IMG/VR virus record: IMGVR_UViG_3300032770_001058
Span: 1-59,006 of that record
DNA: 59,006 nt
Origin: a virus
Lineage: Duplodnaviria; Caudoviricetes
Reading direction: 5' to 3' (one strand)
Shown: piece by piece, positions 33,154-54,974 of the stretch
Layout: each line of letters begins with the position of its first letter
Numbering within the stretch: position 1 is the stretch's first letter
Notes under the pieces: generated by a model
Told to the model about the DNA's origin: nothing
Database searches by the model: none
The model's input: the letters and a program-made list of their open reading frames with translations, nothing else
Position numbers and translations under genes: made by a program

Positions 33154-33354
33154 TTACGATAAATCGCTGGGCGGCGTCGGAGGATTTCGCCGTGCTGCAC
33201 CCAACAGTAGCGCAAGCCGAATCAGGCCCGCGCCCGCGACAATCGACGCGACGGCGTGGGAGAAGTGGGCGACGCCGGTGACGATGGAAATGCCGCCGAT
33301 GACGAGCAGAATGTCGGGAACCTCTGGCAGCAGGAGGTTCAGTAATTTCTTCAT
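33154..33354 (-). CDS. Small two-TM protein between terL and portal
   Basis: Hydrophobic 66-aa ORF overlapping the terL stop. Confidence 0.6.
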   Translation of the reverse strand: MKKLLNLLLPEVPDILLVIGGISIVTGVAHFSHAVASIVAGAGLIRLALLLGAARRNPPTPPSDLS

Positions 33355-35015
33355 ACCGTGATGACTTCCGGAGTGGTGTAAGGGTCGGCGGGCGTTGCGA
33401 TGAGACGGCTGTTGGCAATGACGGCCGCTACTATGCCGTCGATTTTCTTGAGCCGGTCTTTCGGTTTTATGGGCCGAATGTTGCCGTTGTTATCGCGCAG
33501 AATCGCGACGTTTTCCATCATCCACCGCGCGACCTTATCGCCGTTGTGCCGGAGCTGGATTCCCAGCACCTTGGCTTCTAAGTCTTTCGCCGCTTCGCTC
33601 AGATGACGGAAGTTCTGCGGGACCTCGACCATGGTGATACCCGCTTCGGCGAGTTGAGTCGCCAAATGCAGCGCGTTCCACGGGTCGAAGCCGATTTGCA
33701 GGATGTTGAACCGCTGCGCGAGCTCCTTGATGTCGTCCCGAATGATGGCGTAATTCGAGACGTTGCCGGGCGTGGCTTCCAGCAGCTCGGCCTTCACCCA
33801 GGCGTCGTACTTGTGATCACCGGCCTCGCGGCGCTTCTCGACCGTATCTTCGGGCAGCCAGAAGCGGAACAGGACCGTCATCGGCTCGCCTTCGAAGGGC
33901 GGGAAGATCAGGGCAAAAGCATTCAGGTCGCTCTTTTCCGAAACGTCCAGGCCGCCGACGCAATCGCGGCCCTCCAGCTTGACTACATCGAACTCGGATC
34001 GGCAGGCGTCCCAATCTTCAATCGGGATCCAGCGTTCGGCCTGCTGCGTCCAGCGGTTGAGATGCTTGCAGAGAAAATTGTTGAGCGCAGCGGCATTGCG
34101 GCGCGCGCGCTTCGCCTTGTCGCGCAGGTCATCGAGGAAGCAGGAAACGCCCAGGTTCGGATTCGCCTTGATCCACACCGATTCGTCTTGCCAGTCATCC
34201 TGGTCATCGAGCGCTGCGATGAAGGCGAACCAGGCATCGTCCTCGATGTCGATATCAGGGTCGAGAACGTCGATGCAGTAGCCGCGCAGCTCGTAGCAGA
34301 TGCCCTCGGTATTGAAACCGGCCGTCGTAATCGCGGCGATCAGCGGCTGAGTGCGTGCGCCGGTCGCGGTGTCGATCACGTCCCACACCGCGCGCGTCGG
34401 GTGCGCATGCAGCTCATCGACGCCGGCAGCGTGAATGTTCAGCCCGTCCAGCGACTTCTCATCGCGGCTTAACGGCTCGAACTTCGAATCGCTCGACGGA
34501 ATGTGTAGGTTGCTGCGATAGCTCTGAACGAAGGCACGCAGCTCCGGCGAGCTGTGGACCATCCGCTTGGCTTCGTTGAAGACAATCCGGGCCTGATCTT
34601 TCTTGGTCGCCGCGGAATAGACTTCCGCGCCACGCTCGCCGTCGAGCGCGAACAGGATAATGAGGATGGCGGCGAGGAACGTGGATTTCCCGTTCTTGCG
34701 TGCGATCTCGATGTATGCGCGGCGAAAGCGGCGCGTGCCGTCCTCTCGCTTCCAACCGAACAGGCACCAGACGATGAATTGCTGCCAGGGCGATAGTTCG
34801 AAGACCTGCCCGGCCCATTTGCCCTTCGAATGGTGGAAGAACTGGAAACAGTCGATGGCGAACTGCGCATCGGCATCGTCGAACCATAGCCCACGCTCGG
34901 CTCCAGTCTCGAGATCACGGATGTGGCGCTGGACCGCGCGCCGTACGTGCTTACCGACGAGGACACTGCCGGCCAGGACATCAGCAACATATTGTTCGGC
35001 GGGATGCGGCGACAC
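33351..35015 (-). CDS. terL: Terminase large subunit
   Basis: L.PWQ.F, IARKNGKS, YSAATKKDQA, DELHAH, ITTAG, GGLD.S...D, FDPWNA, KIDG.VA. Confidence 0.95.
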   Translation of the reverse strand: MSPHPAEQYVADVLAGSVLVGKHVRRAVQRHIRDLETGAERGLWFDDADAQFAIDCFQFFHHSKGKWAGQVFELSPWQQFIVWCLFGWKREDGTRRFRRAYIEIARKNGKSTFLAAILIILFALDGERGAEVYSAATKKDQARIVFNEAKRMVHSSPELRAFVQSYRSNLHIPSSDSKFEPLSRDEKSLDGLNIHAAGVDELHAHPTRAVWDVIDTATGARTQPLIAAITTAGFNTEGICYELRGYCIDVLDPDIDIEDDAWFAFIAALDDQDDWQDESVWIKANPNLGVSCFLDDLRDKAKRARRNAAALNNFLCKHLNRWTQQAERWIPIEDWDACRSEFDVVKLEGRDCVGGLDVSEKSDLNAFALIFPPFEGEPMTVLFRFWLPEDTVEKRREAGDHKYDAWVKAELLEATPGNVSNYAIIRDDIKELAQRFNILQIGFDPWNALHLATQLAEAGITMVEVPQNFRHLSEAAKDLEAKVLGIQLRHNGDKVARWMMENVAILRDNNGNIRPIKPKDRLKKIDGIVAAVIANSRLIATPADPYTTPEVITV

Positions 35016-35018
35016 ACG

Positions 35019-35537
35019 TTAGTTGACACTCGAAGGCTGCGGGTGGTCGGCTAGGCGCCGCTGCTCGCGCGCCCGCAACATCTTCTGCAGTGGCGACGAT
35101 CCGCCGCCTTCGGGATCAGAGCCCTTGATGCGGGAGCGCGAGCTTGGCGTCATGCCGAACTCGACCAGGAATTTGCGCATCTGGTCGATGGCTCGCTCGG
35201 CGATGCGCAGGTACGGATTCACCAGGGGCAGGCCTTTCGGGGTCTTAATCACCGCTCCGAAACGCTGGATGTTGGCCTCGGCTTCGACCCAGCGACCCCA
35301 GGCCTGACAGTACGCGGCCAACGCCGCACGATCGACGATCGTGAGCAGGTTCAGCCGGTGCAGTTCCAGTGAGATGCGGCGCCACTCTTTCCGCGCATTC
35401 TCGTCCAGGTGCTTCGGACATTTGGGGATGATCTTGGGCGGTTGCGGCTCATCCAGATTCAGCGGTCGCTTGCCAGGATTACCAGTGAGTTCCTTGATCG
35501 CCGTCGGTAAGGGTCTACGGCCGCGCATATTTGGCAC
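35019..35537 (-). CDS. terS: Terminase small subunit, P27 family
   Basis: GR.P.PT..K.L.GNPGKR.LN, P..L...A..EW, D...L..YC, NP, EFG.TPSSRSRI. Start 35537 (GTG) or 35528 (ATG). Confidence 0.92.
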   Translation of the reverse strand: MPNMRGRRPLPTAIKELTGNPGKRPLNLDEPQPPKIIPKCPKHLDENARKEWRRISLELHRLNLLTIVDRAALAAYCQAWGRWVEAEANIQRFGAVIKTPKGLPLVNPYLRIAERAIDQMRKFLVEFGMTPSSRSRIKGSDPEGGGSSPLQKMLRAREQRRLADHPQPSSVN

Positions 35538-35564: not shown

Positions 35565-36440
35565 CTAGAGAGATGCAGGATTGGCATCCGACCATGTCCT
35601 CAGTTTCTCTGTCGTGCTCAGCGCGTATGGGAATGAGTGCAAAAGCAACCGTACCGACGAGGCAGATACGTTTGCATTCATCGGGTGAACTGCATCATTG
35701 CGTTGCGTACGGATTGCTTCAAAGAGTGACACCAGGTGAAGGGTAGCGCCTTCTGAGGCCGAGTAGGGAATCGGTGCGGGGTTACCGGAGGAAAAGTCTT
35801 CAATCGTCTTCTTCACACAATCCAAAAGTGAGAAGAGTTGCCGCTTGTTCAGCGCCGCTTCCAGTGTGGAGCGTCGGCGTGACGGTCTTAGCGCGTTCAC
35901 CAGAGATGCTGCGAGCAAATAGATCGCCTTCTCTGAGGCAGCTCCCACCATCACCGCCGCCGCAAAATATGCCTCACGGTTGAACGCCGTTAGAGCTTCC
36001 AAAATGTATTGCTCGATGACACCGTCTAGTGTGGGAACATGTTCTCTCAGAAACTTCATGTAACCTGTCACCTCTTCAGGGATAGGTTCGGCCCCTTTAA
36101 TCCATTGCAAGCCACGTTCCGTCCAGCAGTACCATTCCGAGCGCGAGAAATTTAAATAGTCACCGGTCGGTTTTGGGTAAACATACCCGGCATTTAATAA
36201 ATAGAAGAGCCCTTCGTGGGCAGCTTTCTGCAGATCTTCTGGGGCCTGTTCGTACAAATATTGTCGACCTGGATAGTGCTGGTGTGGCGAGGGCTTGATA
36301 ACGCCCGGATCATTGATGGCTTCCAACTTTCGCCAGAGACGTTGGAAAAATATCTTAGAGCTAAGTTCGCCCATCTGTTCACTGAATGATGCGCGGACTA
36401 ATTGAAGGACCCGTTCCACACTGTAGTCTGCTTTGCTCAT
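35565..36440 (-). CDS. HEPN/DUF4145-like protein, possible abortive-infection effector
   Basis: EAL.AF...AY.AAAVM.GAA.E and RNDAVHP (R-x4-H); AT-richer. Start taken at MSKADY. Confidence 0.55.
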   Translation of the reverse strand: MSKADYSVERVLQLVRASFSEQMGELSSKIFFQRLWRKLEAINDPGVIKPSPHQHYPGRQYLYEQAPEDLQKAAHEGLFYLLNAGYVYPKPTGDYLNFSRSEWYCWTERGLQWIKGAEPIPEEVTGYMKFLREHVPTLDGVIEQYILEALTAFNREAYFAAAVMVGAASEKAIYLLAASLVNALRPSRRRSTLEAALNKRQLFSLLDCVKKTIEDFSSGNPAPIPYSASEGATLHLVSLFEAIRTQRNDAVHPMNANVSASSVRLLLHSFPYALSTTEKLRTWSDANPASL

Positions 36441-36633
36441 GACGCTATTTCTTTCGTTCGGTTCCGCCCAGTTTAGCTCCCATGTTCGCGTTGCAGCCAC
36501 CATGACCGCCACCGAACAGGCGTTCGGCCCAGCGAACAGGCGTTCGAAAACGTCTCCCGAAAACCCGCGCCGCGCGTGGATTGTCTTTTGGGACAACAGC
36601 CGAAAACGCATACAAACGCTGAGAAAAAAGGGA

Positions 36634-36663
36634 TTGCGCGGCCTGCCGCCGGAGTCCCAGAAT
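36634..36663 (+). promoter_or_regulatory. Candidate sigma-70 promoter of the ribozyme operon
   Basis: TTGCGC-N18-CAGAAT with an A tract upstream. Confidence 0.35.
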
Positions 36664-36669
36664 TCCCGC

Positions 36670-37235
36670 AGTTGTTTGGCTGTTTGGCAAGCGGCAACCA
36701 ACCGCAGGAGAACGGGAAGTGCGGCAGACGCGACGAAACCGAAGCGGCAACCAACCGCAGGAGAGCCGCACTTCCCACCTACCTTGTGCCGCTGGCCACG
36801 GCGACCGTTCGAATCCCACAAACGGCGAAAGCACAGTTGCAACGCGCATCCTGTTCCGCTGGCCTTCGGGCCGGAACGGTAGCGATGCCTGCGCTGCGCC
36901 CTCGCCGCGCGTGTTCTGGCGAACGGTCGGGCTAAGGCTTTCACCAGTCGCTCTCGTCGCGGCGAATGCGGGCTGCGGCCATATCCGGCAGGCTGTACCT
37001 TCCCAAATCGCGTAGCAGGTGCCGATAACCCTGCGAACCCTAGCCTGAGGAACGGCTAGTCGGGACAACTCGAATCCCGGAAATCTCGGAGCGCGGCAAT
37101 CGCCACGATACGGCGCAGTTCAAGAGTTCCGCCCATGGCGGAATCGCCTACAAGGTCGCGGCGCAGTCAAAGAAGCGGCGCGCTAACGGTCATACCGACG
37201 AGACTAAGTGAGAAGAGCGCAAGCGACAAAAAACC
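36670..37235 (+). ncRNA. Putative large structured RNA or 5' leader
   Basis: No convincing ORF; dense helices including 36714-25/36765-76 (12 bp), a C-UUCG-G hairpin at 36861-72, 37040-45/37054-59, 37061-65/37075-79, 37127-33/37137-43 and long-range 36952-59/37196-203. Confidence 0.5.
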
Positions 37236-37236
37236 T

Positions 37237-37302
37237 TCCCGATACTGCCTGATGAGAACGGGACGAAACCGGCCCACATGACAGTGTGGGCACGGTCGCA
37301 GT
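37237..37302 (+). ncRNA. Hammerhead ribozyme HH1 (type I, pseudoknot); predicted cleavage after C37297
   Basis: Stem I ACTGC/GCAGT, core CTGATGA, G-aacggga-C, GAAA, extended stem III, GTC triplet; loop CGGGA is complementary to upstream TCCCG. Confidence 0.9.
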
Positions 37303-37334
37303 TAAGCCGCAACCAGCGGCAGGAGAATTCCGCG

Positions 37335-37856
37335 ATGACAAATAGTAGAGGTTCGCTCCGCTCGGTTTACACGGTGAAGCCGAAGTCGAATTCGAAGAAA
37401 TCCGCTTTCCGTCGCCAGATGGCCGCGCGGCACAGGGCACAGGATGCCGTGCCGACCAGCAAACCCGCAACCAGCCTGAAGCCGAAGAGCGCCGCGAATG
37501 GCTGGGATGACCCTGAAATCCGCGCAAAGCGGATTGCGGCCATTCGCGCCGCGCGCGCTGGTGTCACCGGCCAGCAGCCGACCGAAGAAAAGAAGATGCC
37601 GACTCCTCCGCCGCGTGACCCTGAGCTAGCTGCTGCTCAGGACGCGATCGCCAAGCATCAGTTCGCGATTCTGTCGAAGCTGCCTGCTGAAAGCGTGGTC
37701 AGGTATTACGACCTGGGCTGGCGTCATGCCCACCTGATGGAAGCGAAACCCGACCGCTGCCGACTCCGCTCGATTCCTGCCTACAGCCGCAAACCCGTCA
37801 CCTTCACTGTGCCGACTTCCGAAGTCGAGGCCTACAGCGCTCCCGCGACTGCCTGA
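37335..37856 (+). CDS. Hypothetical basic protein with WDDPEIR motif; ends PATA inside HH2
   Basis: AGGAG RBS at 37321 and ATG at 37335; its stop codon is the TGA of the HH2 core. Confidence 0.7.
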   Translation: MTNSRGSLRSVYTVKPKSNSKKSAFRRQMAARHRAQDAVPTSKPATSLKPKSAANGWDDPEIRAKRIAAIRAARAGVTGQQPTEEKKMPTPPPRDPELAAAQDAIAKHQFAILSKLPAESVVRYYDLGWRHAHLMEAKPDRCRLRSIPAYSRKPVTFTVPTSEVEAYSAPATA

Positions 37857-37895
37857 TGAGATCGGGACGAAACCGGCAACTCGCCGGTCGCAGTC
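37841..37895 (+). ncRNA. Hammerhead ribozyme HH2; predicted cleavage after C37889
   Basis: GACTGC-CTGATGA-G-atcggga-C-GAAA-ccggc-aactc-gccgg-TC-GCAGTC. Confidence 0.92.
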
Positions 37896-37929
37896 ATTTC
37901 AAGCCGCAACCAGCGGCAGGAGAACGATC

Positions 37930-38520
37930 GTGATTAAGAGGAACAAACCCGAAGAGCAGTTAATCCCCGCTGATCTGGACGCCATCGCGAAGAACGCCAT
38001 GTACTGGCAGATTGCCTCGCAGCATGCCGAGGAAATCTACAAAGAAGTGAAGGCTGACTTCTTCCAGCGCGTCGAGACTCACCCGCAAATTGAGATGGTC
38101 GTGGGCAAGAGCCTGAAAGTCTCCACCGGCAAGGTGCGCTGGCAGTCGCGCGAAAACTTCGACGTGCTCCAGGATGAGATCGAGAAGGCGCTGGAGTCGG
38201 GCCGCATCACCGTGCCTGTGCTGTTAGGAATGGTGAAGTCGTACGACACCGACGCGGTGCGCCAGTTCGTACCCGCTGCGGTCGTACCGAACGCGGAGAA
38301 GCCGGTCACCGAGTATGGCGTGATGGTCGCTTCGGCGGACTATAAGGCCGAAGTTCATGCCCAGGTCGATGAGCTGCTGAATCAGTCGCCCGCGCCTGCT
38401 GTGCTCCCGCCCAATGTCGCCGTGATGAAGCCTGCGGCCAGTGTGCCACTCACCGAGCAACTGGAAGCCTCGCTCGCCGATGCGAAGAAGAAACGCTCCC
38501 GCAAGCCCGCGACTGCCTGA
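37930..38520 (+). CDS. Hypothetical protein, weakly Gam/gp157-like; ends PATA inside HH3
   Basis: RBS plus GTG start; helical N-terminus then KSLKVSTGKVRW. The family assignment is weak. Confidence 0.5.
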   Translation: MIKRNKPEEQLIPADLDAIAKNAMYWQIASQHAEEIYKEVKADFFQRVETHPQIEMVVGKSLKVSTGKVRWQSRENFDVLQDEIEKALESGRITVPVLLGMVKSYDTDAVRQFVPAAVVPNAEKPVTEYGVMVASADYKAEVHAQVDELLNQSPAPAVLPPNVAVMKPAASVPLTEQLEASLADAKKKRSRKPATA

Positions 38521-38563
38521 TGAGAACGGACCGAAACCGGCGACCCACTCGCCGGTCGCAGTC
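38506..38563 (+). ncRNA. Hammerhead ribozyme HH3; predicted cleavage after C38557
   Basis: GACTGC-CTGATGA-G-aacggac-C-GAAA-ccggcga-cccac-tcgccgg-TC-GCAGTC; shorter pseudoknot (CCG/CGG). Confidence 0.88.
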
Positions 38564-38597
38564 AATTCAAGCCGCAACCAGCGGCAGGAGAACGCAA

Positions 38598-39464
38598 GTG
38601 CAAGACACAAGCACCAATTACCGCTACTACACCGCCGAACCGCTCACCAATGACCAGCTTCGCCGCGTCGCGCCGTCCATCTTCGCCGAGCGGCCATGGG
38701 CGGAAATGTCTGACCGCTACACCTTCATTCCCACCATCCGCATTGTCGAGGAGATGCGTAAGGAAGGGCTGGTGCCCTATTTCGCCAAGCAGACGATCTC
38801 GCCTGTCGAAGGGCGGACCCCCTTTGCCATGCACATGATTCGCTTCCGCGATACGTCGCAACGCGGCCAGAAGCTGGTCGTCGGCGACTTGTATCCGGAA
38901 GTGACTCTCATCAACTCACACGATGGCGGCGCCAGCTACCGGCTGATGGCTGCTCTGCTGCGCGCGGCTTGCATGAACGGCCTGATGGTCAGCGATTCCG
39001 AGTTCGCGGCCATTCACGTCATGCATCGCGGCAACGTCACTCCCGTGCTTGAGGCCAGCTTCCAGGTCATCGAGCAGTTCCCGAAGATCATGGGCGAAGT
39101 GGGCGAGTTCCAGCGCATCGAGCTCAAGCGCGACCAACAACTGGCGCTGGCCGAATCGGCGCTGGAATTGAAGTACGACGAGCGGGACGATGGTTCGCTC
39201 GCCTGCCCGATCACCGCCGACGCCGTACTGATGCCGCGCCGCTCCGACGACTCGAAGCCCACGCTATGGAACACATACAACGTGGTACAGGAAAACCTGA
39301 TGAAGGGCGGCCAGCGCGGCGTCATCATCGGCGCGAATCACCGCACTCGCCGCGTCAAGACGCGTCCGGTGAAGGCGATTGCCACGGATGTCAAGTTAAA
39401 CAAGGCGCTGTGGACATTGACGGCGAGGATGGCCGAGTTGGTCGGCGCTCCCGCAGCCGCGTAA
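38598..39464 (+). CDS. DUF932/DUF945 family protein
   Basis: PLTNDQLRRVAPSIFA.....SDRY.FIPT, H.IRFR, LINSHDG.ASY, R.AC.NGL, LW..YNV.QEN...GG, LN.ALW.L. Confidence 0.85.
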   Translation: MQDTSTNYRYYTAEPLTNDQLRRVAPSIFAERPWAEMSDRYTFIPTIRIVEEMRKEGLVPYFAKQTISPVEGRTPFAMHMIRFRDTSQRGQKLVVGDLYPEVTLINSHDGGASYRLMAALLRAACMNGLMVSDSEFAAIHVMHRGNVTPVLEASFQVIEQFPKIMGEVGEFQRIELKRDQQLALAESALELKYDERDDGSLACPITADAVLMPRRSDDSKPTLWNTYNVVQENLMKGGQRGVIIGANHRTRRVKTRPVKAIATDVKLNKALWTLTARMAELVGAPAAA

Positions 39465-39477
39465 TCATTTCGTCATG

Positions 39478-39503
39478 GCTGGCCCGCTCGCTCGCGGGCC
39501 AGC
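39478..39503 (+). terminator. GC-rich hairpin after the DUF932 gene, without a U tract
   Basis: gctggcccgc/gcgggccagc 10-bp stem; could be a pause or 3' stability element instead. Confidence 0.35.
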
Positions 39504-39542
39504 GCGACTCAAACCGCTGTACTACCGAATAGGAGAACGGTC

Positions 39543-39836
39543 ATGGCAAAGAAAAACGCAAACGGCTGGGACGACCCTGAAATCCGGCAGCGCCGCATCG
39601 ACGCAATCCGCGCGGCGCTGGCGAAGAAACCCGCAACGAAGAAGGCGAAGAAGGCCAGCAAGAGCAGCCCGAAGGCGAAGGCCAGCAAACCCGCGAAGAA
39701 GGCGAAGAAAGCCAGCCCGAAGCCTGCGGCGACTCAGGCGAAGCAGCAGCCCGACACCAAACTGGCGAAAGCGCTGCACACGCTCGAATCGCGCGTGAAG
39801 GTCACGCCCATCAACTCACTTCCCGCAACTGCCTGA
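39543..39836 (+). CDS. Small Lys/Ala-rich, histone H1-like protein with WDDPEIR motif; ends PATA inside HH4
   Basis: AGGAG RBS; KKPATKKAKKASK repeats. Confidence 0.75.
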   Translation: MAKKNANGWDDPEIRQRRIDAIRAALAKKPATKKAKKASKSSPKAKASKPAKKAKKASPKPAATQAKQQPDTKLAKALHTLESRVKVTPINSLPATA

Positions 39837-39876
39837 TGAGAGCGGGACGAAACCGGCCATCCGGCCGGTCGCAGTT
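39821..39876 (+). ncRNA. Hammerhead ribozyme HH4; predicted cleavage after C39870
   Basis: AACTGC-CTGATGA-G-agcggga-C-GAAA-ccggcc-atcc-ggccgg-TC-GCAGTT; pseudoknot TCCCGC/GCGGGA. Confidence 0.92.
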
Positions 39877-39905
39877 AAGCCGCAACCAGCGGCAGGAGAA
39901 CACCG

Positions 39906-41078
39906 ATGTTGGAACAACCGCTATCAGCCAGTCTCATCCTCACCAACGCCAAACACGATAAGGTCTTTCGCGCCTGGCTCATGCCGCAAGGCACGGGATG
40001 GGTGGTCAGAACCGAATGGGGCGCGCGCTCTGCCGGTAAACTCAGCTCGCAGGTGAAGCCCGACTCTCCGACGACCTATGAGGCCGCGAAGAAGATCTAC
40101 GACAAGAAAATCCGCGAGAAAACCGAGTTGCCGTGCTCCTGCGGCTGCGGCGACCGCTACCTGCAAACCCGCGTCGAAGCGGGCGAGCCGAAGCTGCAGC
40201 CGATCGATTGCACGGCGGCGCAGGCGGAGCAGGAACAGAAAGCCGAAGCTGTCGCTGGTCCGACAAGCTGGGCACCGCAACTGCTCGAACCCATCGAAGG
40301 AGAGCGCGGCAAGCTGCTGCTGGTCGGTGATGACCGCTACGGCGCGCAGGAGAAGTACGACGGTGTCTGTATTTCCCTATGGTGGGCGGAAGAGCAGCGC
40401 GCGCGCTGCTTCAACAAACTCGGCCAACTCCGCGACGTGCCCACCTACGTTGCCGACTCGCTGATCGCGCGCGCTCGTGAAGCCGAAGCGAAGTCATTTT
40501 GGGTTCACGGCGAGCTGCTTCCGAACGGCGGGCCGCTGGTCGTGCACGACCTGATGGAATGGAACGGCGACGATCAGCGCGGCGAAACCTATCGCGCACG
40601 CTTTGGGCTGGTCGCGACGTTCCTCGGCAACTGCCTGCATATCGCGATTCCGGAATTGATCACCGGAACGCATGCGAAGAGCGCGTTCGTCGCCGCACTC
40701 GCCGCGAAGCGGGCCGAAGGTGTCGTATTCAAGCGGCTCAATGCGCCGTACCTGCCCGGTCGTACGCAGCACTTCAAATTCAAATTCTGGCAGTCGGCCA
40801 CTTGCAAGGTCACTCCGAAGCGGAAGATCGACGGCAAGAATTCCCACGCCATCTCGGTGTTGCGCAAGGGGAAGCTGGTCGAAGTCGGCACCGTCACCGG
40901 CAAGAGCAGCGTACCGGCCCAGGTCGGCTCGCTGGTCGAAGTGAAATACCTTTATGTGGGTCATGGCGATCGCTTCGTGCAGCCCGAATTGCTGGGCCTG
41001 CGCGACGATCAGGCCCGGCCCGACGATTGGTCCACCCTCAAGCTGAAAGACACTCACCGGGAGGCGCGGTCATGCTAG
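39906..41078 (+). CDS. WGR-domain ATP-dependent DNA ligase
   Basis: N-terminal WGR-like domain (HDKVF, TEWGAR, A.K.YDK.I.EK); ligase motifs QEKYDG, HGEL, HDL, EGVVFK, KFK; OB fold EVKYLY...QP...RDD. Confidence 0.8.
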   Translation: MLEQPLSASLILTNAKHDKVFRAWLMPQGTGWVVRTEWGARSAGKLSSQVKPDSPTTYEAAKKIYDKKIREKTELPCSCGCGDRYLQTRVEAGEPKLQPIDCTAAQAEQEQKAEAVAGPTSWAPQLLEPIEGERGKLLLVGDDRYGAQEKYDGVCISLWWAEEQRARCFNKLGQLRDVPTYVADSLIARAREAEAKSFWVHGELLPNGGPLVVHDLMEWNGDDQRGETYRARFGLVATFLGNCLHIAIPELITGTHAKSAFVAALAAKRAEGVVFKRLNAPYLPGRTQHFKFKFWQSATCKVTPKRKIDGKNSHAISVLRKGKLVEVGTVTGKSSVPAQVGSLVEVKYLYVGHGDRFVQPELLGLRDDQARPDDWSTLKLKDTHREARSC

Positions 41079-41296
41079 TCCACGTCTTCCGCTTCCCCTC
41101 ACCCGAGCTTGACGAATGCGCGACGACCATAAGAGCAGCTATCCGCGCTCACTGGCGCCGGGAGATCACCTTCGCCGAATACCTGGCGGTGAGAGATGCT
41201 GCACATGCGAAGTGCGAGCATGTATTGCTCCGCATCTTTGCCGCCCTGGACCGCTCGGACGACCGGCCCGAGGTCTCCGAACGGCTGGCGGCATGA
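41072..41296 (+). CDS. Hypothetical protein (74 aa)
   Basis: GGAGG RBS; ATG overlaps the end of the ligase gene. Confidence 0.55.
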   Translation: MLVHVFRFPSPELDECATTIRAAIRAHWRREITFAEYLAVRDAAHAKCEHVLLRIFAALDRSDDRPEVSERLAA

Positions 41297-41299
41297 CCT

Positions 41300-41357
41300 T
41301 CCCGCAACTGCCTGAGAGAACGGGACGAAACCGGCGACTCGTTCGCCGGTCGCAGTT
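41300..41357 (+). ncRNA. Hammerhead ribozyme HH5, degenerate (core CTGA-GA lacks position 7)
   Basis: AACTGC-CTGAGA-G-aacggga-C-GAAA-ccggcga-ctcgt-tcgccgg-TC-GCAGTT. Confidence 0.75.
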
Positions 41358-41385
41358 AAGCCGCAACCAGCGGCAGGAGAACGCT

Positions 41386-49333: not shown

Positions 49334-50437
49334 TTAACTTTCCAGCTTGCGCATGGCAGCAACGACATCCGGATCGAGCGTCTTGATGTAACACTTCTGC
49401 GTGACGCTCACATTCGAGTGGCGCAAGATGCGCTGAATGACGTTATCTGAGACGCCGAGATGATGAAGAACAGTCGCCAGGCCCCGCCGGAAAGCGTGCC
49501 AGCCGTGCCAAGCCAGACCGTGGCCGGCCAGAGTCGGTGCAATCACCTTGCGCGCCAGCACATCGAGGTTGATGGGCGCGCCGCTGGCGCTTTGGAAAAT
49601 CAACCCGCTCGGCTGTTGAAGCCGATTGAGCCGGTCCGCGAGCTGGGCAATTACCGGGATCGGCGCTTTGCTCGTCTTAGTCTTGGGTTCGAGCTGATGA
49701 CTGCGCCAGAAGGTCCGCTGCACCTTTAGTTGCTCGCCATCGTAATCTTCCCAGCGAAACCCGCGAATCTCGCTCTTGCGAGCTCCCGTAAACGCTGCGA
49801 CTGTTACGATCGTCGCGGCGGGATCGTCGAGAACCGCGATCATCTGCTGAATTTCGGCCAGGCTGTAGGCGTAGGTTTCGGCGGCGGGTTTTGCCTTCGG
49901 CAGCTCGACATCATGCATCGGGTTCGGCGTGTTGATGATGCCGAGCCGCTTTGCCGCGTGGAAGGCCCCGCTGAGAAATGCCTTGATGTGGCGCAACGTT
50001 GTGATACTCAGATCACGCGCGCGCTGCAGCTCGGCCAGAATGCGCTCTCCGGTCGCAATGTCGAAGTCGCGCAGCACAATTGCCGCGTGCGGCTTCAAGT
50101 ACAACAGCCACATGTTGCGGTAGCCGCGAAACGTGCTGATGCGCTTCTGCGACTCGACTGCCGGAAGGTAGATTTCTTCGACAAACTGTCCGAGAGTTGT
50201 GTTCGCTAGTGGCGCCCGGGCTTCATTCTTCGGCGCAATAAATTCGTCGGCCAGAGTCCGGGCCGCGCCCTTCGTCTTATAGTCGCCGATCGCGGCAGCG
50301 AGCCGATGCGTAACTCGCCTGCGCTGGAGGCTGCCATCAGGAAGCCTCACCGTCTCGCGGTAACGCAGGAACCATGTATTGCCTTTCTTGAAGAGAAAAC
50401 CGCGCTGATGGCGCGTACGCTGCCTACTCACATACAT
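49334..50437 (-). CDS. int: Tyrosine recombinase / integrase
   Basis: Arm-binding N-terminus (QRG.L.K....W.LRYRE); catalytic TGARKSE, K (PKT), HAFRR, LRH, Y. Confidence 0.9.
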   Translation of the reverse strand: MYVSRQRTRHQRGFLFKKGNTWFLRYRETVRLPDGSLQRRRVTHRLAAAIGDYKTKGAARTLADEFIAPKNEARAPLANTTLGQFVEEIYLPAVESQKRISTFRGYRNMWLLYLKPHAAIVLRDFDIATGERILAELQRARDLSITTLRHIKAFLSGAFHAAKRLGIINTPNPMHDVELPKAKPAAETYAYSLAEIQQMIAVLDDPAATIVTVAAFTGARKSEIRGFRWEDYDGEQLKVQRTFWRSHQLEPKTKTSKAPIPVIAQLADRLNRLQQPSGLIFQSASGAPINLDVLARKVIAPTLAGHGLAWHGWHAFRRGLATVLHHLGVSDNVIQRILRHSNVSVTQKCYIKTLDPDVVAAMRKLES

Positions 50438-50885
50438 GCGGAGTTTGTGAGACGATTCGATCCGCCCAGCTCGCGCGGCCCTGTAGCGGGTCCCATTCCT
50501 CAACTTTGTCCTGGGCGGCCCGGACGCGGCCGGCACTGATGTAAGACTCGTGACTGCCGCGCTCCCAATCATCGAAGATCGTGCACGGCAGTCCGACATT
50601 GGCAAGAACGTCCGCGAGCGTTATCGAGGCAGGATTGTTTGCGGATTTGCTAGGCGGAGGAGGAACAGGGAGGAGCGCGATCGCGCGGACTCGCTGCGCG
50701 ACCGCGCCTGCGTAGCGGAGAATGCGGGCCTTGCCTTGGGCCAGAAGCTGCACCGCTCGATCTGCCGGAATGTAGCGAACGAACTGCTCGAATTCATCGT
50801 GAAGTCCAACATTGAACCGATTGTTTCGCATGTGCGCCCCTAAAAGTAACGGCCCGTCGCCGATGACGGGCCTCAATTGACTCAT
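50424..50885 (-). CDS. Hypothetical protein
   Basis: Overlaps the integrase start; no family recognised. Confidence 0.4.
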   Translation of the reverse strand: MSQLRPVIGDGPLLLGAHMRNNRFNVGLHDEFEQFVRYIPADRAVQLLAQGKARILRYAGAVAQRVRAIALLPVPPPPSKSANNPASITLADVLANVGLPCTIFDDWERGSHESYISAGRVRAAQDKVEEWDPLQGRASWADRIVSQTPHVCE

Positions 50886-51272: not shown

Positions 51273-51992
51273 ATGATCATCACCGTAGGCGGAATCAAGG
51301 GCGGCAGTGGCAAGACGACGATCGCGACCAACCTGGCCGTGATGCGCGCGCGGGAGCGATTCTGGACGCCACAGGTGCACAAGCGGATCCCGGACGAACA
51401 TTTTCAGGTATTGCTCATCGACGCCGATGACCAGCAGACCGCCGCCGATTTCACCGCGCGCCGCGCTCTGGAAGGGCACGATTCGACCTTCACCTGCATT
51501 CAGCTCGCCGGGACCGCCGTAAGAACTGAAACCTTGAAGCTGAAAGGGAAGTACGACGACATCATCATCGACGTGGGCGGTCACGATACTACTAGCCAGC
51601 GCGCGGCGCTTTCCATCGCCGACCTGCTACTCGTGCCCTTCGTGCCGCGCAGCTTCGACGTGTGGACGTTGGAGAAGATTGCCGAGCTGGTCGACGAAAT
51701 GCGGCAGGCGAATCCTCACCTGATGGCCTGGACCTTCCTCAATCGCGCCGACCCGCGCGGCCAAGACAACGAACAGGCGGCGGCGCTACTGCGGGAAAAC
51801 GCATTTCTGCGCTTCGTCGATGCGCCGCTGGGCTCGCGCAAGGCTTTTGCGAATGCAGCGGCAGAGGGCCTGGGTGTGGTCGAAATGAACGGCTGTGGTG
51901 ATGAGAAGGCCGTTGCGGAAATGCGCGCACTTTACGCGATCGTGTTCGAGACCTTCGATAAGAGGGGAGACAAGCATGGCAGTCACGCCTAA
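51273..51992 (+). CDS. parA: ParA family ATPase (short, type Ib)
   Basis: KGGSGKTT.A.NLA, LLIDAD.Q, IIIDVGG, AD....P..P..FD, R.AF..A...G.GV.E. Confidence 0.9.
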   Translation: MIITVGGIKGGSGKTTIATNLAVMRARERFWTPQVHKRIPDEHFQVLLIDADDQQTAADFTARRALEGHDSTFTCIQLAGTAVRTETLKLKGKYDDIIIDVGGHDTTSQRAALSIADLLLVPFVPRSFDVWTLEKIAELVDEMRQANPHLMAWTFLNRADPRGQDNEQAAALLRENAFLRFVDAPLGSRKAFANAAAEGLGVVEMNGCGDEKAVAEMRALYAIVFETFDKRGDKHGSHA

Positions 51993-52224
51993 GCCAGCAG
52001 CGAAGAGTAAGGTCGATGTGGACGCGCTCATTCGCAAAGGCGGTTCACCGGCTGCGAACGGCGATATTCGGTCGACCGTCCCACTGAAATTGCGCGTGCC
52101 AGCACCGATGCTGCGCCAAGTGGATGAGATTGTGGCCGCGCGCAAGGTCCCCACGCCGCGCCATTCCTGGCTGCTGGAAGCCATTCACGAGAAGATCGTG
52201 CGCGACTCGCGGCGCCCGACGTGA
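51976..52224 (+). CDS. Small ribbon-helix-helix-like partition protein (ParG-like)
   Basis: Flexible N-terminus then LKLRVP..ML..VD........PR..WL.EAI.EK; overlaps the parA stop. Confidence 0.65.
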   Translation: MAVTPKPAAKSKVDVDALIRKGGSPAANGDIRSTVPLKLRVPAPMLRQVDEIVAARKVPTPRHSWLLEAIHEKIVRDSRRPT

Positions 52225-52274
52225 AAAATAATTCGGCATTTCCGCAAGCCAGATACTGGGAGAGGTGAAACTCG

Positions 52275-54974
52275 ATGCCCCGAGGCAAAGCGAGCGGTCG
52301 GAAACCGTCCAAGCGCCCCATCGAACGATACGAGCACACGGACAAGAAACGGATCAATAACCCGCCGGTAGGTCTGGTGAACCCGGAGACGGAACCGCCT
52401 CTGCCAACGCATAAAACCTACCAGTACCCCCACCCGGTCCCAACAGTAAAGCCCGGCAAGGACCTGGACTACGATCCGCACCTCGATCCGCAGCTCGTGT
52501 GGGCCGGCAAGAAGGAGCATACGTCATTCGAGGTGCCGACCGTCTCCCTGCATGTCCACGAACGAATAGACCCGCGGACAATCATGGAGGCGGTGCGCAA
52601 GCGCAATGGCAACGGAGCCGCTGCACAGCCGTCGTTGTTCGAGCGGCGGGAGGAGAATCCACCGTTCCGCGAAGCGATTGACTTCTACCGCCACGCGCAC
52701 GGCTGGTCAAACCGGTTGATTGCCGGCGACTCGCTGCTGGTCATGAACTCGCTTTTGGAGAAAGAAGGCATGGCCGGGCAGGTGCAGATGGTCTATGTCG
52801 ACCCGCCGTATGGAATCAAGTACGGCTCGAACTTCCAGCCATTCGTTAACAAGAAAACAGTATCTCCCTCCGATAAAGACGAGGATCTGACGCAAGAACC
52901 CGAAATGCTGCATGCGTTTCGCGATACCTGGGAACTCGGTGTCCATTCGTACCTGACGTACTTGAGGGATAGGCTCCTGGTTGCAAGAGACTTGCTTCAC
53001 AGCTCTGGTTCGTGCTTCCTCCAGATAAGCGACCAGAATCTTCATCTCGTCAGAAGTCTGCTGGACGACATTTTTGGCGCCAACAACTTCATCGCACTGC
53101 TTTCGTTTCAGAAGAAGGGCAGCCAGTCGGGGGACTTCGTTCCCTCTATACACGAGTACATCGTGTGGTACGCCAAAGATAAGTCAGTCGCAAAGTTCCG
53201 GCGCCTGTACAGACCGCGCGATTTGGCGGGCATCGGAGGTTCTGGGTTTGAGTACCTGATGTTAGCCGACGCAACGATTCGTAATCTAACTGAGGACGAG
53301 AAGCTCGGTAATAGTCCTCTACCGGACGGTGCGCGAGCCTTTCGGTACAATCCCTTGTTCAGTGCTAAACCTGGGCCGAATGAACCCGTCGAAATTGATG
53401 GAACACCTTACCCATCCGGCGGTAATTCCTGGAAGGTAAATCCCGCAAAAATTCCACTGCTCTACAAAATCGGCAGAATCGTAAAACAGAAAACGCGCCT
53501 AGTGTATCTGCGATATGCCGATGATTTCGACTACGTACCGCTCACGAACATCTGGGGTGGTATCGGTGGATCTCCGGACAAGGTATATGTTGTCCAGACT
53601 AATCCCGTCATACTGAAGAGATGCATCTTGATGACCACTGACCCAGGCGACTTGGTTCTCGATCCGACCTGCGGCTCGGGCACCACGGCCTATGTCGCCG
53701 AGGAGTGGGGGCGGCGCTGGATCACCTGCGACACCTCGCGCGTGGCGGTCACCCTAGCTAAGCAGCGGCTGATGACCGCCGACTTCGATTATTACGAGTT
53801 GCAGCACCCCGATGAGGGGGTAGGCAGTGGATTCCAATACAAAAAGGTGCCTCACATCACTCTCAAGTCCATTGCAAACAATCCTGAGATTCGCGAGGGC
53901 ATGTCTTCTGAGCAAATCGATGCAGCCATTACTAGGTATGCCGACCGAGAAGACCTGTACGATCAACCGTTCATAGACAAGAAGCGTGTTCGAGTGACTG
54001 GTCCATTTACGGTAGAGGCCGTTCCTGCTCCGACGGTGCAATCACTGGAGGATATCCAGGTCGGCGTGGGCGCCGCCGCGACGGCATCAGGCAGCGCGCA
54101 GCAATCCATCGGCGACTTCCGCCATGCGGCCACGCCCCTGCTGGACACCTCAATCGCTCGTTCCGGCCCGACTCTGCGCCACACCGAGTGGCGCGACGAA
54201 TTGCTAAAGACCGGCCTGCGCGGCAAGGGTGGGCACCACATCGACTTCTCGCGGGTCGAGCCTCTGGCCGGCACGCGCTGGCTCCATGCCGATGCGGAGA
54301 CCAAAGGCATAAAGCCAGAGCGCGTCGTCATCTCCTTCGGTCCTGAGCACAGCCTGCTCGACAGCAATCAAGTCGAACTGGCCTGGAAGGAGGCGCGGAT
54401 GCTGGTGCCGCGCCCTGACATCCTCGTTTTTGCGGCTTTCGAGTTCGATCCCGAAGCGGCGAAAGACATCGATGAGCTAACAAAAGACAAGGCCGGCATG
54501 ACACTGCTCAGTGCGCAGATGAACGCCGACCTGCTCACGGAGGATCTGAAAAAGAAGCGGGCCTCGAACCAGAGCTTCTGGCTGGTGGGACGCCCGGACG
54601 TTGAACTGCGCCAGATCGGCAAGGGCGAGCACAAGGGTAAATGGGAAGTGGAAGTGGGCGGCTTCGACTACTACAACACGCGTACAGGCACCATCGAATC
54701 GGGCGACACGTCGCGCATTGCCATATGGCTGTTTGACCCAGACTACGACGGCCGCAGCCTTTATCCGCGCCAGGTATTCTTCCCAATGGCCGACGAGGAC
54801 GAGGGCTGGACTAGGCTGGCGCGCAACCTGAAGGCGGAGATCGATCCAGACCTGATCGAGGCTTATCGCGGAACGACTTCGCTACCGTTTGACCCTGGCC
54901 CGCACAAGCAAGTTGCGGTGAAGGTCATTGACGATCGAGGCATTGAAAGCCTAAAAGTCGTGGATGTGAAGTGA
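52275..54974 (+). CDS. mod: Type III R-M modification methyltransferase (beta class)
   Basis: NRLI.GDSL, YVDPPYGI, AT-richer central target-recognition region, VLDPTCGSGTTA, KVID.RG.E. Confidence 0.88.
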   Translation: MPRGKASGRKPSKRPIERYEHTDKKRINNPPVGLVNPETEPPLPTHKTYQYPHPVPTVKPGKDLDYDPHLDPQLVWAGKKEHTSFEVPTVSLHVHERIDPRTIMEAVRKRNGNGAAAQPSLFERREENPPFREAIDFYRHAHGWSNRLIAGDSLLVMNSLLEKEGMAGQVQMVYVDPPYGIKYGSNFQPFVNKKTVSPSDKDEDLTQEPEMLHAFRDTWELGVHSYLTYLRDRLLVARDLLHSSGSCFLQISDQNLHLVRSLLDDIFGANNFIALLSFQKKGSQSGDFVPSIHEYIVWYAKDKSVAKFRRLYRPRDLAGIGGSGFEYLMLADATIRNLTEDEKLGNSPLPDGARAFRYNPLFSAKPGPNEPVEIDGTPYPSGGNSWKVNPAKIPLLYKIGRIVKQKTRLVYLRYADDFDYVPLTNIWGGIGGSPDKVYVVQTNPVILKRCILMTTDPGDLVLDPTCGSGTTAYVAEEWGRRWITCDTSRVAVTLAKQRLMTADFDYYELQHPDEGVGSGFQYKKVPHITLKSIANNPEIREGMSSEQIDAAITRYADREDLYDQPFIDKKRVRVTGPFTVEAVPAPTVQSLEDIQVGVGAAATASGSAQQSIGDFRHAATPLLDTSIARSGPTLRHTEWRDELLKTGLRGKGGHHIDFSRVEPLAGTRWLHADAETKGIKPERVVISFGPEHSLLDSNQVELAWKEARMLVPRPDILVFAAFEFDPEAAKDIDELTKDKAGMTLLSAQMNADLLTEDLKKKRASNQSFWLVGRPDVELRQIGKGEHKGKWEVEVGGFDYYNTRTGTIESGDTSRIAIWLFDPDYDGRSLYPRQVFFPMADEDEGWTRLARNLKAEIDPDLIEAYRGTTSLPFDPGPHKQVAVKVIDDRGIESLKVVDVK

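Follow-up and report, generated by a model that had tools for sequence, protein, structure and literature searches.

The locus, its non-coding character and its conservation

We analysed a 59,006-nt stretch of viral DNA (IMG/VR record IMGVR_UViG_3300032770_001058, a 59-kb provirus record; hereafter the window) and examined positions 36670–37297, a stretch that ends at the predicted cleavage site of a hammerhead ribozyme (HH1) and that an earlier note had described as a large structured RNA. The stretch lies inside an 895-nt gap (36441–37335), with a leftward packaging operon on one side and, on the other, a rightward (+ strand) operon that is punctuated by hammerheads and encodes a DUF932 protein and a ParB-like protein. 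The small terminase (TerS), the large terminase (TerL) and an integrase are all present in the prophage. On sequence grounds the host is an uncultured member of the Acidobacteriaceae; homologous DNA was found only in contigs titled uncultured Acidobacteriaceae genomes and in metagenome contigs. The features of the locus are as follows.

33351–35015, − strand: large terminase gene
35019–35537, − strand: small terminase (TerS) gene
35565–36440, − strand: gene for a 291-aa protein, family not recognised, left of the gap
36509–36546: two 18-nt direct repeats (D4), each with the palindrome CGAAC-N4-GTTCG, at the left edge of the conserved block
36624–36663, + strand: promoter-like site (A-tract 36624–29, −35 TTGCGC 36634–39, spacer of 17–18 nt, −10 CAGAAT 36658–63)
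36668–36800, + strand: leader domain, 133 nt, with repeats D1, I5 and I9 and a fold signal
36801–37190, + strand: conserved non-coding body, with local hairpins and low divergence
36861–36872 (GGCC UUCG GGCC), 36946–52/36961–67 (CAGUCGC/GCGACUG), 37040–59 (CUAGCC/GGCUAG) and 37127–43 (UUCCGCC/GGCGGAA): hairpins of the body
37191–37234, + strand: linker between the conserved body and HH1, common only to L140 and L141
37235–37302, + strand: HH1, a RAGATH-1-like type I hammerhead by its core, its stems and a sub-threshold Rfam match (Rfam alignment 37242–37302)
37304–37337, + strand: hairpin and Shine-Dalgarno (SD) module and ATG 37335 of the first cistron
37335–37856, + strand: first cistron, 173 aa; its ATG at 37335 is the operon start
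37841–41381, + strand: HH2–HH5 in the rest of the operon, with predicted cuts after 37889, 38557, 39870 and 41351
36691–36711, 36744–36764, 37306–26, 37903–23, 38571–91, 39879–99, 41360–80, 44842–62 and 45007–27, + strand: copies of the module
49334–50605: tyrosine integrase gene

Seven open reading frames (ORFs) of 48–207 aa overlap the stretch, none of which has a Pfam match at E ≤ 0.01. In an alignment of ten sequences (A4), 15 of the 17 indel events are not multiples of three, and the 59 variable sites fall into the three phases as 24, 18 and 17 (chi-square p = 0.48), with no codon periodicity. Positions 36670–37297 are non-coding, in agreement with the earlier note, which had seen no credible ORF there and whose coordinates and list of parts proved accurate.

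Homologues were collected by scanning for two patterns, the module and a 24-mer taken from the leader; as both probes derive from the leader, its presence in all homologues reflects ascertainment and is no evidence. Ten homologous loci were found, four in Acidobacteriaceae genomes (L135/G004, L136/G001, L137/G002 and L138/G003) and six in metagenome contigs (L139–L144), with L140 and L141 near-identical. The left edge of homology falls at 36498–36529 in all except L138 (36625), the right ends vary (36802, 36905, 37116, 37178 in L143, 37189 in L135, and 37356), and three contigs end inside the block. To the right of the block the other loci carry host-type genes (isoamylase, aminotransferase, AhpC-like, O-antigen ligase and TPR), and of the other window ORFs of at least 100 aa, the seven loci tested have relatives only of TerS (L135, L137 and L138) and of two gene fragments (L143); L139 shares TerS at the DNA level. 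The host genes on the right and the few shared phage ORFs suggest that the other loci are truncated prophage remnants. In L141, the solitary block copy is followed after 180 nt by a tRNA gene (1331–1402, 72 bits), an arrangement that fits a prophage remnant at a tRNA integration site. A scan of the window for tRNA and tmRNA genes found none.

The family is narrow. Phage records gave no match to the stretch (blastn, distant mode), and 37 TerS-related and 80 DUF932-related viral loci gave just four matches of 19–25 nt to the gap by blastn. Among 401 host-family genomes, the only real match was G004, with three others matching over 23–29 nt, and a 22-mer of the body had no match in viral contigs and met only two already-known loci in genome contigs.

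TerS diverges between loci by 9–20% at codon position 3 and by 1–4% at positions 1 and 2. The block differs by 3–4% in seven of ten locus pairs, against the 9–20% at TerS position 3 in the same loci, and for comparisons against the window the difference between block and TerS position 3 has a Fisher p of 2e-7 to 5e-3. Pairs that include L139 reach 8–12% block divergence, mostly inside the promoter spacer; against L135, L137 and L138 its block divergence (8.0–11.7%) is little below that at TerS codon position 3 (13.1–14.7%). The low divergence means that this non-coding stretch is under as much constraint as replacement-type sites in a conserved protein. Along the block, mean pairwise divergence is 10.3% at 36530–36633, 2.9% at 36668–36800, 4.3% at 36801–37000 and 2.7% at 37001–37190, and the rise in conservation coincides with the predicted transcription start. 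These comparisons show purifying selection on the stretch, and its conservation is the strongest evidence that it has a function, as a unit that would begin near 36668.

Promoter-like site, leader modules and hammerheads

At the left edge of the block, the second copy of the palindrome has arms that are invariant across homologues and a 4-nt spacer that is free to vary (AGGC, ACGC, ATGC, AGCC and ACCC). Positions 36509–36546 are operator-like and form a putative protein-binding site; no cognate repressor gene was identified for the palindromes. Further right, the promoter-like site ends 7 nt before 36670, with the start predicted at about 36668–36670. The candidate promoter pointed out in the earlier note gains support from its retention: AAAAAAGGG, TTGCGC, the 17–18-nt spacer and CAGAAT are kept in all nine homologues that cover them (A5), and in L139 the spacer is heavily substituted at the same length. 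The A-tract agrees with the proximal UP-element consensus. No promoter-like site was found between the conserved block and HH1, either by eye or by consensus scan. Since HH1 needs transcription from upstream, the nearest conserved promoter-like site would place the start at about 36670. The predicted transcript opens with GCAGUU, as do the 5′ ends left by each hammerhead.

The module consists of a 5-bp hairpin, whose loop is of the AACCA type, and of AGGAGA immediately after it, ahead of start codons. It occurs nine times in the window, always on the + strand, where 0.05 copies are expected. Its stems occur as compensated variants (GCGG/CCGC, GCCGC/GCGGC and GCGGT/ACCGC), which supports an RNA hairpin. 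The module also heads operons in the related contigs L124 and L129, and in L124, a viral contig, the module comes straight after a strong promoter and the first ORF comes next, with no long leader; this order argues that a + strand transcript starts at the module. The module may serve these Acidobacteriaceae phages as a common element for translation or stability.

Two copies of the module lie in the 133-nt leader domain (36689–36711 and 36742–36764). A GTG at 36719, which is GTA in L136, stands at start-codon distance behind the first copy, and in the window a perfect 12-bp stem (36714–25/36765–76) buries this GUG and the second copy. In the same domain, GAGAACGGGA and ACGCGACGAAACCG at 36708–41 resemble pieces of a decayed hammerhead unit (repeats D7 and D10). 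Further on, the 9-mer UGCCGCUGG (36787–95) is an exact complement of the 3′ half of the five modules that follow hammerheads; it is invariant in nine of the ten homologues and occurs outside modules only three times in 118 kb, counting both strands. Pairing of UGCCGCUGG with the modules of the untranslated regions (UTRs) may be considered a lead only. The leader has a minimum free energy (MFE) signal (z = −2.98 against dinucleotide shuffles, which served for all z scores; 0 of 200 as good).

HH1 has a complete core (CUGAUGA 37249–55, GAAA 37265–68 and GUC 37295–97), which bears out the ribozyme named in the earlier note, and would cleave after C37297, the end given there. Stem I is ACUGC/GCAGU and stem III is CCG+GCCCACA/UGUGGGC+CGG, and upstream, UUCCCG (37236–41) complements the stem II loop CGGGA. 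In the Rfam scan (cmscan), HH1 matched RAGATH-1 (RF03152) with 26.5 bits and an E-value of 0.17, and HH2 matched it with 25.9 bits; both fall short of the gathering score, 56.3. RAGATH-1 was the only hammerhead model reported for HH1, and the whole window gave no match at gathering score. As in RAGATH-1, the two ribozymes have a full core, a one-pair stem II with a 7-nt loop and a hairpin stem III, and they align to the 3′ two-thirds of the model; unlike it, they leave its first 23–25 positions unmatched.

In a self-search of the window, the last 90 nt of the gap recur four times downstream, at about 37841, 38506, 39819 and 41296. Each of the five copies (37242–41381, all on the + strand) comprises a hammerhead core, then the hairpin-AGGAGA module, then a start codon (alignment A1), and stem III is paired in all five despite differing loops and lengths. 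From HH1 to the first start codon is 38 nt. L140 and L141 retain HH1 with one mismatch in stem III, GUU rather than GUC at the cut site and an extra A in loop II. HH5 (about 41310) lacks core position 7 (it reads CUGA-GAG) and may cleave poorly or not at all. Cistrons 37335–37856 and 37930–38520 end on the UGA of the CUGAUGA core of HH2 and of HH3, respectively (37853–56 and 38517–20), so that a terminating ribosome would sit on the ribozyme core. The listed ATG of the DUF932 gene (38520) falls within HH3; the module after HH3 points to an in-frame GTG at 38598 as its start, and the PHROG match begins at residue 38.

Of the 24 sequencing runs in the index, three are RNA libraries, from three studies, and all three include contigs at ~95% identity to the locus (36539–36778, 36744–37012 and 36767–36931). 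A 2.5-Gb soil DNA run covered most of the stretch at a depth of 2–5; RNA libraries of 0.6–0.75 Gb would hardly assemble the locus from contaminating DNA, which hints that the stretch is transcribed, and fairly abundantly, in relatives. None of the RNA libraries covered 36300–36538 or 37013–37500, a result that is uninformative as the flanks differ between relatives.

A proposed ribozyme-severed leader and the evidence that weighs on it

With modest confidence, we favour the reading that 36670–37297 is the conserved non-coding leader, or ‘unit 0’, of a prophage operon punctuated by hammerheads, with transcription beginning at about 36670 and HH1 cutting the leader off from the first cistron. 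Transcription of the + strand as the first unit of the operon is suggested by the module and its compensated stems, by the layout in L124 and by the position of HH1. RNA polymerase would start at about 36670 from the conserved A-tract, −35 and −10 site, and the transcript would open with the module (the 5-bp hairpin and AGGAGA), lead into the 12-bp clamp and continue for ~450 nt without a reading frame. The HH1 cut after C37297 would free a ~628-nt leader RNA ending in a 2′,3′-cyclic phosphate, and would give the first mRNA a 5′-OH end with GCAGUU, hairpin and SD sequence, like those of the other cistrons. The earlier note's discrete RNA, running from the promoter to the HH1 cut, thus survives as probable on the conserved promoter, the module, the step in conservation and the RNA contigs; its description as one large structured RNA finds no support, for the reasons given below.

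Our guess is that the leader regulates the operon at the RNA level, with the compact 133-nt 5′ domain as the prime candidate for a functional part that folds. The leader could act in cis, on elongation or on translation start, or in trans after its release, through the two decoy UTR modules and the 9-nt anti-module. A bolder form of this idea, to which we give little credence, has unit 0 as a constitutive, ribozyme-released RNA that acts in trans on the shared UTR modules and sets lysogenic silence or superinfection immunity. It would titrate a factor with its two decoy modules or pair through the invariant UGCCGCUGG. Constitutive expression from its own promoter would explain why unit 0 appears in three metatranscriptomes, and the solitary copies in L140 and L141, which have promoter, body and HH1 and no phage gene, would then be domesticated immunity RNAs.

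Several observations weigh against the severed leader. The RNA-library contigs are unstranded, come from relatives and could contain DNA, and one of them (36539–36778) extends 130 nt across the predicted start, unlike the simple model. Both promoter hexamers match the consensus weakly (3/6 and 4/6), and the consensus scan did not call the site; the A-tract and its hairpin can also be read as a terminator-like site on the − strand. All other copies are truncated remnants beside host genes, and so offer no second intact phage in which the unit is seen to work. A comparison of the leader with the five 5′ UTRs (RNAduplex) placed the best duplexes at 36911–36981, matched by 38 of 300 shuffles, which is not significant. 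In the body, the MFE is that of shuffled sequence at 36800–37099 (z = −0.26, 85 of 200 as good) and little better at 36940–37234 (z = −1.34, 17 of 200). RNAalifold gave practically equal energies on the two strands (−117.7 and −117.2), and on alignment A4 it predicted 85 pairs with no compensatory change among them and a covariation term of +5.69; the count of pairs changed on both sides, zero, is no better than in 500 of 500 shuffles. One-sided changes in the predicted stems divide into 11 compatible and 11 disruptive, a split that is the neutral expectation and that transitions give by chance. The covariation test has low power either way, as the homologues are 95–97% identical (3–5% diverged), and 65 of the 85 pairs never vary.

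Over the whole stretch, MFE z scores are −2.5 on the + strand and −2.9 on the − strand (0 of 20 shuffles as good in each), so similar that they carry no strand signal. In sliding 200-nt windows, the + strand has a fold signal only at 36600–36799 and at HH1. Hence folding better than shuffled sequence, which the earlier note had expected of the whole, was found for the 133-nt leader and HH1 and not for the body, and covariation was found at none of the predicted pairs, a count that, given the low power, is no refutation of structure. Sequence conservation is evident in the 400-nt body; a compact fold is not demonstrable.

Individual elements of the body fared differently. The UUCG hairpin (36861–36872) and the 8-bp complement (36952–59/37196–203) that the earlier note had listed are both in the sequence. 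The complement had been taken as a long-range helix closing a ~250-nt domain, and it is not conserved: L135 deletes 36952–55 and loses homology at 37189, and L136 has a 45-nt insertion at the site. A 10-bp helix (36802–11/36920–29), perfect in the window, was likewise discarded, as it is broken in homologues by substitutions at 36808, 36809 and 36925. In the hairpin 36946–52/36961–67 the stem is retained across homologues whose loops measure anything from 6 to 55 nt, and the hairpin 37127–43 has a compensated change in L135 (C37133U with G37138A), which lies outside the alifold structure. Two GCGCAGU(U/C)-AAGA motifs (GCGCAGUUCAAGA and GCGCAGUCAAAGA, at 37111 and 37159) resemble the post-cleavage leader (D6). 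An attempt to read the strand from wobble pairs, with hairpins inspected by eye, was uninformative (three changes fit only the + strand and five only the − strand), and an internal duplication of the body was rejected (local alignment score 24, shuffle mean 21.9).

Four hairpin insertions of 43–46 nt in the homologues all fall within predicted loops or unpaired stretches, at window equivalents after 36673 (L138), after 36743 and 36955 (L136) and after 36899 (L140/L141). These four independent insertions share a framework, CCCACCCC-stem-CAAAA-stem-GGGGNCCC, and other copies with covarying stems occur in the same genomes. Of eight such copies fetched, two match Rfam Acido-Lenti-1 just below threshold (35.9 and 26.7 against 37 bits); the insertions in L131, L133 and L141 had no Rfam match at E ≤ 0.5. 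Four insertions in one 600-nt block seem many for an element with few copies per genome.

Alternative explanations and related systems

The main rival, and a serious one that we nevertheless rate as clearly less probable than the severed leader, is a role at the DNA level linked to the terminase: a packaging (cos/pac) region recognised by TerS, or a dense regulatory region between the divergent late and early operons, with the transcript incidental. The block and TerS are the only DNA-level parts shared with L135, L137, L138 and L139, and the gene between them differs each time, which is the expected look of TerS paired with its recognition site. The palindrome at the left edge, with its invariant arms and free spacer, would suit a DNA-binding protein, and conservation is uniform over stems and loops, with no covariation and no strand asymmetry in folding. 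Set against this, ~520 bp are as tight as TerS codon positions 1 and 2, far beyond what cos sites or operators are known to need; the cos regions of lambda and P2 are far smaller. The step in conservation falls at the predicted transcription start, with the regulatory DNA upstream 2.5–3.5 times more diverged, and the 5′ part is built of mRNA 5′-UTR modules. The block has no iterons, and no DnaA box or AT-rich stretch was seen in it; a replication origin was rejected for want of the DnaA box. A distant phage contig with a DUF932 gene and one hammerhead (L073) has a cluster of the DnaA box TTATCCACA at 2700–2830, in the gap upstream of its hammerhead operon, and from this motif cluster that gap looks like a replication origin.

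The variable slot between TerS and the conserved block holds 35565–36440 in the window and equivalents in L135, L137, L138, L139 and L140. Across the loci it encodes two proteins of no recognised family (291 and 221 aa), proteins with HEAT repeats, a phosphoesterase and a secreted protein, and from this gene content it looks like a cargo (moron) hotspot bounded by conserved DNA. The 291-aa protein and its counterparts had no match to defence systems, save HEAT-repeat models for the L139 protein.

It is unlikely, in our estimate, that the stretch is one globally folded non-coding RNA (ncRNA) of ~550–630 nt with a functional tertiary fold, like GOLLD, ROOL or OLE. Its length (~600 nt), its location in a prophage and the absence of an ORF are like those of GOLLD and ROOL, and conservation over the whole stretch fits as well. 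The indels, together with all four large insertions, are concentrated at a few places where loops are predicted, and the compensated pair in L135 and the stem kept at 36946–52/36961–67 point the same way. The shuffle-like body, the breakage of the closing helix and of 36802–11/36920–29 in homologues, and the 0 of 85 covarying pairs argue otherwise, and several pieces resemble debris of hammerhead units (D6, D7 and D10) rather than a designed fold. The earlier note had not placed the RNA in a known class, and a search of 36500–37240 against Rfam 15 (including GOLLD, ROOL, OLE, HEARO, Acido-1 and Acido-Lenti-1) found no family, with one chance match of 9.4 bits (E = 9.8). The stretch thus differs from GOLLD, ROOL and the other large Rfam ncRNAs in having no match to them at gathering score or at E ≤ 10, no fold signal in its body and no covariation, and in its taxon, the Acidobacteriaceae.

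Somewhat more doubtful still is that the stretch is evolutionary debris, made of decayed hammerhead units and a dead gene, with a low divergence that stems from recent recombinational spread among related prophages. Fragments of hammerhead units are indeed scattered through it (GAGAACGGGA and ACGCGACGAAACCG in the leader, GCGCAGUUCAAGA and GCGCAGUCAAAGA in the body), every other copy is a truncated remnant, and the family comprises ten loci with a single real match among the 401 sampled host-family genomes. The low divergence holds in most locus pairs, beyond the comparisons with the window, and is weak in L139 against L135, L137 and L138. Within one contiguous block, the part upstream of the start is 2.5–3.5 times more diverged, a step that a sweep of the whole block does not explain.

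Least probable is a functional transcript from the − strand, which as a long leader or as antisense RNA would run through the block towards the cargo gene and the terminase operon, with a hairpin and U-run at 36660–36624 as attenuator: the 9-bp GC-rich hairpin (36630–38/36650–58) followed by U6, the slightly better MFE z (−2.87), the RNA-library contig that crosses the + strand start and a TTGTCG-17-TAGTCT match at about 37200–37235 (by eye) speak for it, whereas substitutions in L139 destroy the 3′ arm of the hairpin and spare the −35 and −10 hexamers and the spacer length, which favours the promoter reading, the promoter match on the − strand is altered in L141, the only homologue that covers it, and the modules, the SD sequences and HH1 all lie on the + strand.

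The severed leader has partial parallels among known systems. The RNAs CI of P4, C4 of P1 and P7, and put of HK022 are leader-derived regulatory RNAs of phage early operons. Like them, unit 0 would be a conserved non-coding leader behind a presumed early promoter, with repeats related to ribosome-binding sites and release by processing. The differences are that a self-cleaving ribozyme would do the processing here, in place of RNase P, that the repeats are same-sense copies of the module, that the only antisense match is 9 nt long and not significant by duplex energy, and that no relation to them was found in sequence or in Rfam.

Hammerhead clusters that flank genes in prophages have been described (Perreault et al. 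2011, PMC3088659). As far as that description goes, the present operon resembles those clusters in having several hammerheads of the same orientation between single genes, presumed to cut the transcript into gene-length RNAs, and in having neighbours of the early or anti-restriction kind (here the DUF932 and ParB-like proteins). It differs in that the hammerheads described there flank protein genes, whereas the first unit here is gene-free and more conserved than the neighbouring coding DNA. Full-text literature searches returned no paper that, by its title or abstract, reports a non-coding prophage unit bounded by hammerheads; the figures or supplement of Perreault et al. may show similar units.

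The purpose of prophage hammerhead clusters, known since 2011, is still open. Here the first ribozyme-delimited unit is gene-free and yet evolves 3–5 times more slowly than the synonymous-like sites of a neighbouring gene, which points to a function for the RNA (or DNA) itself. With five cuts, one shared 5′-UTR module and one non-coding unit, the operon is a small system in which to ask what the ribozymes are for. A released regulator would be a natural example of a bacterial regulatory RNA whose end is set by a self-cleaving ribozyme; if the stretch is merely a packaging or regulatory DNA region, the finding is an ordinary one.

Among the neighbouring genes, the 291-, 173- and 390-aa proteins had no relatives in the viral or genome contig collections. 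Past the integrase, 51273–57868 encodes a ParA-like ATPase, an 899-aa DNA methylase and a 965-aa ResIII-type helicase, and could be a restriction-modification island outside the prophage.

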